Assembly (NCBI RefSeq): GCF_964213995.1
Contig: NW_027590140.1
Coordinates: 682,001-746,000 of the forward strand
Reading direction: 5' to 3'
Source: Mustelus asterias
Lineage: Eukaryota
Length of the DNA: 64,000 nt
Below the pieces are notes generated by a model. The model ran no database searches, was not told the origin of the DNA, and saw nothing but the letters and a program-made list of their open reading frames with translations. The position numbers were made by a program, and so were the translations under genes. Every line of letters starts with the position of its first letter. The first letter of the stretch is position 1. Positions 42,996-43,646 of this stretch are shown here, piece after piece.

Positions 42996-43646
42996 CTGAA
43001 GTTACAGTCACCTTGGGGTCCCCTGTCCCCAGGATCCATGGTAACCACTGCTATCTTTTGCACAGTAATAGATGGCGGTGTCTTCGCTCTTGAGGCTCCC
43101 CATGTCCAAAGCGAAGATATTGTTTGAAATGTTTTTGCTCGCAATAAATCGATTCTGAATCGCAGTGGCGTATTCCCTGGTCGATAAACTAAAGTAGTAA
43201 ATCAACAATTCCAACCCCTGTTGCGGAACCTGTCGGATCCAGTGCATGCCGTCGCTTCCAAGATCGAAGCCGCTCGTATTATAGGTCAGTCTCAGGCAGC
43301 CTCCGGGATGCCCGACCGCTGCCTCGGACTGACACAACACAACATCCGACTGGACACCTGTAAAAATATATCACATGAGTCATTCAAAAAAACACAAAAC
43401 AGAATCCACCCAAACACATTTCAGTGAATTAATCAATTATTAAAATAGTTCAAAATGTAAAACAGACTCAGAAAAAGTGACTTAATAAATGGCCCCGAGG
43501 ACTAATCTTTGTCAAATAATTGCTGACTCTGGAATATTCCAGAGATAGACTAACACTGACACAGTGACATTGAGAGACTTTGACAATAAAAACTACTCAC
43601 CCGACAAGAAAGCCAGCAGCAAAATAATATAAATCGCCGCGCTCAT
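42996..43646 (-). pseudogene. Germline-joined IgM-type heavy chain VH-D-JH (leader 43601-43646; VDJ exon 42996-43357)
   Basis: Leader [34 protein letters not shown](C>Y)[37 protein letters not shown], frameshift, then (K)VTVTS G|GTAAG; no RSS between V and J. Confidence 0.93.

Follow-up and report, generated by a model that had tools for sequence, protein, structure and literature searches.

How a fully joined IgM-type VDJ exon came to lie, in inverted orientation and without C exons, among TCR V segments, and whether it stands on the path from Ig genes to Ig-TCR chimeras, are the questions raised by a stretch of 64,000 nt from Mustelus asterias (contig NW_027590140.1, here C108, positions 682,001 to 746,000; hereafter the window, numbered from its first letter). 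The reading that we favour, with a probability of roughly 0.87, is that the exon is a pseudogene copy of a germline-fused IgM gene, likely joined by RAG and likely deprived of its C exons by a break in the J-C intron at position 41686. The exon is an orphaned pseudogene of a known kind; the oddity lies in the C-region deletion of its parent gene.

The joined exon and the origin of its join

The exon and the elements that belong to it, all on the minus strand, are the following.

43647..46230, minus: upstream flank with homology to ordinary IgM clusters, piecewise at 65-87%
43738..43745, minus: TATA-like box, putatively part of the promoter of the IgM VH; the element has aligned counterparts in the paralogues and one more cluster
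43646-43601, minus: leader exon of 46 nt, intact, with its ATG at 43646 and a phase-1 GT donor
43600-43358, minus: leader intron, kept (GT..AG)
43370..43493, minus: insertion of about 120 bp in the leader intron, 89% identical to the start of the gene's own J intron
43357-42996, minus: fused V-D1-D2-J exon of IgM type without RSS, a pseudogene, followed by GTAAG (from sequence, profile, RSS scan and tree)
43281..43283, minus: C23>Y at the first conserved Cys, which is Cys in the paralogue
43032..43054, minus: V-D-J junction of 23 nt, set against D1, D2 and J taken from clusters of this genome that are unjoined
43015..43021, minus: +2 frameshift in J relative to the paralogue, which has none
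42860..42985, minus: start of the J-C intron, by sequence comparison the likely source of the leader-intron insertion
41686..42995, minus: rest of the J-C intron, 1.3 kb, common to the paralogue that keeps Cmu3 and Cmu4

A profile search recognised the exon as a V-set domain (E=1.7e-11), and it reads through V, an 8-residue junction and J up to the GT donor. No RSS was detected inside or beside it when the whole window was scanned, the sole site being that of a TCR V at 40649. The preliminary description of a VH-CDR3-JH exon lacking RSS and retaining its leader intron is therefore confirmed, with exact coordinates. The two lesions which it held to be disabling, a C>Y change and a frameshift in J, were likewise seen (C23>Y and two extra nt) and make the exon a pseudogene; judging from its sequence, the window copy is predicted to yield no antibody or TCR chain. 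The leader-intron insertion, present in all four copies of the family and absent from the leader introns of the other 41 of the 45 loci scanned, would be a local templated insertion. With its likely source it forms direct repeats of 125 bp (43370-43493 and 42860-42985) that flank the VDJ exon and are common to both VDJ-bearing paralogues.

The junction occurs at exactly four places in the assembly, which form two pairs: the window (on C108) and a 99% identical copy on the 20-Mb scaffold C71, probably alleles, and a 94% identical paralogue found on both C71 and C221. In the paralogue the same junction is in frame and C23 is intact; its own lesions are a TAG in FR1 and YYC>HYC. Since it shares the junction while carrying different, independent lesions, the join predates the duplication that separated the two. 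In a second sample (X3, which shares its study with the likely source sample, may come from the same animal and is of unstated tissue, lymphoid or not), one contig bridges the whole junction (42829-43177) with two differences and no gap. Contigs from a second species (organism B) cover the V and J sides but reach just 18 nt past the joints, short of the 31-letter threshold, and sharing of the junction with that species is only a hint. One contig of its run X5 crosses the site of the J frameshift without a gap, with just 29 letters on one side.

The make-up of the junction points to V(D)J-type joining. It contains an untrimmed V end, one extra base, the exact 8-nt core of the commonest D1, a D2-like stretch (in the paralogue it matches 10 of 12 bases of the D2 end of another cluster) and a J whose 5' end is trimmed back to just before W. 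The D1 match is not a chance one, because an exact 8-nt match to the commonest D1 of the genome sits in a junction of 23 nt. We infer from this composition, which is sequence evidence, that RAG likely acted in the germ line; P nucleotides are not demonstrated and D2 is blurred by later mutation. For light chains, complete removal of the RSS and trimming of J are described as marks of germline joins in the available part of PMC2193156.

The V of the family is 60-69% identical (amino acids) to the VH of IgM clusters among the matches listed. A phylogeny with IgM and TCR-associated Ig-like V genes had been proposed as a check in the preliminary description; in a quick tree (56 V sequences, 101 columns, many forks open) the three distinct family sequences formed one clade among the IgM VH (SH-aLRT 98), and the lone VH-like segments that bear RSS and sit in TCR units grouped apart from it in a clade of their own (97). 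Around the exon, 2.6 kb of upstream sequence and 0.8 kb of J intron align to ordinary IgM clusters.

Two other origins of the join have to be weighed. That it is a somatic B-cell rearrangement or an assembly error in the reference could be argued from identical V genes found elsewhere in different joining states, which may be somatic (VDD-J at L009 and L021 against fully joined at L012; L016 against L017). It is nevertheless extremely improbable for the window exon: the two 94% identical paralogues share the junction with independent lesions and are each assembled twice, the X3 contig bridges it, and an unjoined version of the window V is absent among the 150 best VH matches. The misassembled or somatically rearranged read, which the preliminary description had considered fatal to its own claim, is set aside by the shared junction and the X3 contig. 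The second origin, retroposition of a rearranged transcript in the manner of marsupial V-mu-j, has next to no likelihood. The leader intron of V-mu-j is lost; the window exon keeps its own, and the C exons of the paralogue are separated by introns. A cDNA origin is excluded, since leader intron, 2.6-kb upstream flank and 0.8 kb of J intron align with ordinary clusters; what speaks for it is the precedent of V-mu-j itself, a pre-joined VH-like exon of probable retroposed origin (PMC7615758, in the part available). The germline, DNA-level joining of RAG type advanced in the preliminary description, as opposed to retroposition, is upheld by the shared junction and the kept introns, its RAG part with the reserve given above.

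Germline-joined (VDJ) IgM clusters are known in cartilaginous fish (PMC4279169 and PMC5192425, each available in part). The window gene resembles them in that V, D and J are fused, the RSS are gone, J is trimmed, the leader intron is kept and V and J are of IgM type; the join is inherited, and the V and the paralogue's C are of IgM lineage. It differs from them in that the window copy has neither linked C exons nor an open frame, that its parent lacks Cmu1, Cmu2 and TM, and that a copy of the J intron lies in the leader intron.

Segmental duplication and the missing constant exons

The duplication, its end and the two TCR V segments nearest to the exon are as follows.

41685..64000, strand not applicable: segmental duplication common to the paralogue, 95% near the gene and 99% farther away, reaching at least 37 kb past the window end
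41685..41687, strand not applicable: breakpoint joining the IgM J-C intron to the 3' flank of a TCR V unit that lies on the opposite strand, with about 2 nt common to both sides and no RSS
40139..40688, plus: pseudogene of a TCR alpha/delta-type V; it has a leader and an RSS and runs convergently to the IgM exon (V exon 40344-40648)
55938..56216, plus: 3'-truncated TCR alpha/delta-type V in the duplicated block, with no YYC and no RSS

The TCR V at 40344-40648 lies 2.35 kb from the IgM exon and is defective by W>C, a stop and C>Y. The best TCR matches in PDB of the other, about 12 kb upstream of the IgM exon, are alpha chains. As had been noted from the sequence, the IgM exon (minus) is opposite in orientation to both (plus).

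Exons for C domains of IgM, IgW-like, IgNAR-like or TCR type were absent from C108:532-796 kb on both strands, and no C exon was found downstream of the IgM exon across 193 kb. The earlier observation that no CH exon precedes the TCR V 2.3 kb downstream thus extends to all linked sequence of the window copy that was searched. The sole C-region piece in C108:532-796 kb is a lone IgM TM exon (C108:580894-581025, minus) 144 kb downstream; it was rejected as a part of the window gene, there being no C domain in between and its sequence resembling the TM of another cluster. In the C71 copy of the window gene, about 435 kb separate the exon from the next same-strand Cmu1, which has a V of its own.

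The block shared with the paralogue measures at least 59 kb, includes the upstream TCR V and has the IgM exon near one end. Identity along it rises from about 95% near the IgM gene to more than 99% beyond 55461, a gradient that suggests gene conversion or a mosaic duplication. The window copy breaks off 1.3 kb into the J-C intron, at 41686, in both of its assembled versions (C108 and C71); no contig bridging this break was present among the sequencing-sample contigs listed. The flank to the left of the break is that of a multicopy TCR V unit: of its 40 matches, 38 are located elsewhere, and none of them reaches beyond 41686. In the paralogue the J-C intron is 8.1 kb long and leads to a Cmu3 and a Cmu4-secretory exon with intact splice sites and a secretory tail (compared with an ordinary IgM cluster, Cmu3 is 71% and Cmu4 85% identical). 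In a third paralogue (C138, C112) the C exons are of one lineage with those of the paralogue (95-96% amino acids), and a 3.3-kb deletion has taken promoter, leader and VDJ. Both other paralogues run on beyond 41686, which makes the window copy the derived one; its C exons likely went when the J-C intron was broken, by the segmental duplication or by a rearrangement after it. The case that the preliminary description had set against itself, an ordinary IgM cluster with C-mu exons close by, holds for the paralogue, which has kept Cmu3 and Cmu4, and fails for the window copy.

The course of events may be reconstructed as follows. A normal V-D-D-J-Cmu cluster would have been joined in frame; the gene would have lost Cmu1, Cmu2 and TM, the loss of Cmu1 and Cmu2 coming before or after the join, and received a copy of its J intron in the leader intron. 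The gene, together with its TCR V neighbour, would then have been duplicated to give three paralogues. The window copy would subsequently have suffered the loss of C, C23>Y and the frameshift, the second paralogue the stop in FR1 and the third the loss of VDJ, the break at 41686 dating from the duplication or from a later time. All three are defective in the present assembly.

The parent gene is the unusual element. Protein and DNA searches found no Cmu1, Cmu2 or TM in either C-bearing paralogue, and C regions made only of Cmu3 and Cmu4-secretory exist at L046:3617-4756 (C71:17.40 Mb), C138:901.6 kb and C112:865 kb, with open frames in all three. These C regions are divergent: Cmu4 has an additional Cys, and loops of Cmu3 are changed at several places. 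Could such a gene, after losing Cmu1 and Cmu2, have worked as a secreted, light-chain-free VH-Cmu3-Cmu4 antibody of fixed specificity, of which the window exon would be a relic? This is compatible with the fused-pseudogene explanation; as a stronger claim it is, in our view, a tentative and rather unlikely one. In its favour, the join is in frame, the J donor and the Cmu3 acceptor are both in phase 1, and the paralogue has intact Cmu3, Cmu4 and secretory tail as well as a polyA-like signal. The exons of the two C-bearing paralogues diverge by about 2%, below the flank mean of 3.6% (P=0.012); against this, flank divergence ranges from 2.3 to 7.6% and the deficit vanishes when the exons are set against 2.3%. 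At FR2 position 47, L is found in all four family copies versus W in all 41 other VH, while L45 is kept and G44R is seen in the paralogue only (44, 45 and 47 being what we take to be the position numbers).

CH1 is absent from the parent gene, and its loss is the first criterion for heavy-chain-only antibodies, with ratfish IgM as a precedent; another, however, is a change of FR2 residues from hydrophobic to polar or charged (PMC3149040, in the part available), and W47L is still hydrophobic and one of many changes on the stem of the family. Substitution counts give little evidence of past function: between paralogues, Cmu3 and Cmu4 show 9 nonsynonymous versus 5 synonymous changes (dN/dS 0.56, non-significant with p=0.34) and V shows 16 versus 2 (pairwise counts), and dN of the family lineage to an outgroup cluster is raised (0.153 versus 0.109-0.111, with similar dS), as under relaxed selection. 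No intact copy exists in the assembly. A germline-joined, secretion-only, CH1-less minibody without light chains, perhaps intact in related sharks, is accordingly a doubtful prospect. We found no report of a joined V-Cmu3-Cmu4 gene in the literature on IgM1gj and CH1-less shark IgM, which was covered mostly without subscription papers, and neither the window CDR3 nor a V-Cmu3-Cmu4 layout appeared in the protein database matches, weak evidence with so few shark entries among them.

Two described systems come close to this family. In nurse shark IgM1gj the VDJ is joined, Cmu2 is missing and the C domains number three, and its partner is a joined light chain (PMC4279169, PMC5192425); going by the available parts of these descriptions, the family has in common with it the fully joined VDJ, the missing Cmu2 and (in the paralogue) the secretory tail, but IgM1gj keeps Cmu1, whereas the family has neither Cmu1 nor Cmu2 and no intact copy. 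With the CH1-less IgM of ratfish and the heavy-chain antibodies of camelids it shares an IgH gene without CH1 and a changed FR2 residue. In ratfish, however, a CH2 duplication replaces CH1, whereas here CH1 and CH2 are both gone, V is pre-joined, FR2 remains hydrophobic and all copies are defective (PMC3149040, same part). If the family was once functional, its C-region deletion would be a further independent route to light-chain-free antibodies, which is testable in relatives.

The TCR neighbourhood and Ig-TCR chimeras

The genome measures 3.68 Gb. Dozens of V-D-D-J-Cmu clusters are spread over scaffold C71 and many unplaced contigs, together with TCR alpha/delta V segments that, among the matches listed, lie in both orientations. 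In the ordinary IgM clusters examined in detail, TCR V segments lie within 3-10 kb after the cluster; an ordinary cluster that was fetched resembles Triakis IgM. TCR V exons between IgH clusters are described in four elasmobranchs, and Table S1 of the same source has great white shark entries named 'IgMV', 'IgM (missing V)' and 'IgM pseudo?' (PMC12227049, available in part). Because IgM clusters and TCR Vs alternate chromosome-wide, as they do in that source, an IgH V among TCR Vs is the normal layout and no sign of transfer. The window agrees with this elasmobranch complex in the alternation of IgM clusters with TCR Vs on both strands, and a lone IgM V is listed there too; it differs in the nature of its orphan, a VDJ that is fully joined, whose breakpoint has been mapped and whose sister copies have been identified. 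The relocation of the exon into a field of TCR Vs, assumed in the preliminary description, finds no support here, as the exon sits in IgM-cluster flanks inside the block of at least 59 kb and the layout is ordinary. Taken alone, the window copy is an ordinary dead pre-joined IgM exon in a complex already known for mixing IgH and TCR Vs. VH exons can become orphans there, and C regions V-less, with no special Ig-to-TCR transfer involved, as this copy shows.

A more ambitious proposal was that a joined VDJ moved into the TCR V field is an intermediate towards chimeras of the NAR-TCR or TCR-mu type. TCR Vs do lie on both sides of the exon, the window copy is without a C exon, and chimeric Ig/TCR genes exist in sharks (PMC12227049, PMC5931798, both in part). 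A NAR-TCR-like cassette (a NAR-type V and a supporting V) is even present on the same strand about 130 kb downstream (C108:592-597 kb, minus), but it has its own NAR-type V. Any move of the exon would have been that of the whole block of at least 59 kb, in which the upstream TCR V was already present; without RSS it could not undergo the usual joining to a TCR D; and both neighbours are defective and on the opposite strand. None of the 19 TCR-delta-type C exons of the assembly is on C108; the nearest on C71 are found on the other strand, at distances of 1.5 and 2.4 Mb. The VH-like segments associated with TCR units form their separate clade and have RSS. The proposal is for these reasons largely refuted, and we regard it as very unlikely. 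Splicing of the window exon to a TCR C was also considered and rejected, no TCR C being on the contig. NAR-TCR, TAILV / IgHV-TCRdelta and the V-mu-j of TCR-mu do share with the window Ig-like V domains near TCR genes on one chromosome. The window exon differs from them: it is not an unrearranged VH-like segment with a 23-RSS, as in TAILV / IgHV-TCRdelta; it has no same-strand supporting TCR V and TCR C, as in the two-V arrangement of NAR-TCR-like and TCR-mu-like genes; it keeps its introns, in contrast to the retroposed origin of V-mu-j; and its V belongs to another clade. A second NAR-TCR-like cassette, apparently with V and D pre-joined, was seen at C71:7.085-7.091 Mb (plus).

TCR-delta-type C was found at 19 places in the assembly, each with a TCR TM exon 3-6 kb downstream; this is not a locus count, as unplaced contigs may be haplotigs. 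The exons were sought with the whale shark TCR C region, Pfam PF09291 having matched nothing, controls included. Three of them lie on C71 among IgM clusters, at 7.14, 11.04 and 12.27 Mb. Four units were examined.

C71:7.10-7.14 Mb: delta-type J-C-TM unit (L147-L151)
C71:11.02-11.05 Mb: delta-type J-C-TM unit (L159-L162)
C71:12.24-12.27 Mb: delta-type J-C-TM unit (L154-L157)
C110:955-984 kb: delta-type J-C-TM unit (L163-L166)

Three of the four have a VH-like V with a 23-RSS, one D and 5-6 J, then C and TM. In the fourth, TCR Vs and Js are present, but neither a D nor a VH-like V. Among the VH matches listed, at least 11 of the 19 C exons have a VH-like match 25-41 kb upstream on the same strand. 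Seven delta-type C regions that were compared fall into four groups, 95.6-97.4% identical between groups and 99-100% within. A single divergent TCR C with 33 J motifs, a J-alpha/C-alpha array, lies at C71:18.37-18.43 Mb, and the 120 kb preceding it yielded no V and no delta-type C. We deduce the names delta and alpha from unit architecture, and the scaffold could lack a canonical delta unit next to alpha. TRD is possibly organised here in IgH-like miniclusters. As far as the available parts of the sources go, the TCR alpha/delta locus of sharks is a translocon (PMC12227049) and TRD normally lies in or beside TRA (PMC12698447). No report of a multi-copy shark TRD was found in the literature, covered mostly without subscription papers and with the supplement of PMC12227049 in part only. 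These scattered units, most of which have an Ig-like V upstream, bear more directly on the question of Ig-TCR chimeras than the window exon does, and are likely the more interesting.

Other joined loci and features of the window

Joined clusters are common in this genome: among 26 other loci, one proved fully joined and at least six partly so. At L138 (C71:4.73 Mb), a fully joined, in-frame IgM VDJ is followed by Cmu1-4 and TM and is a candidate for a functional joined gene; L139 (C71:11.0 Mb) is a second, 5'-truncated copy of the same joined VDJ, the C exons having been examined for L138. L012 and L009/L021 have identical or near-identical V in an out-of-frame VDDJ and in VDD-J, respectively, and L017 and L016 likewise share their V while between them showing an unjoined and a D-D-J joined state. 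Such different joining states of the same V are either captured somatic joins or segregating germline joins, and some other joins in the assembly may be somatic. A second orphan is L005 (C91:2408 kb), a partly joined VDD-J IgM cluster with no same-strand Cmu in the 54 kb downstream.

No look-alike of the window came up in other genomes. The window holds further features. An Ig-like C..W..C exon at 22228-22500 (plus), with no Pfam match and weak matches to obscurin and titin, is also present in the C71 copy. An intact single-exon ORF for a rhodopsin-family GPCR (7tm_1, E 8.8e-20) at 48589-49569 (plus) lies within the duplicated block. Three tRNA-like genes were noted at 35076-35149, 36502-36576 and 37519-37614, and LINE-type reverse-transcriptase fragments at 12609-13700 and 60198-61991. 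Long CT-rich and C-rich simple repeats extend over 420-9800 and 58100-59400, and simple repeats dominate the repeat scan of the window.
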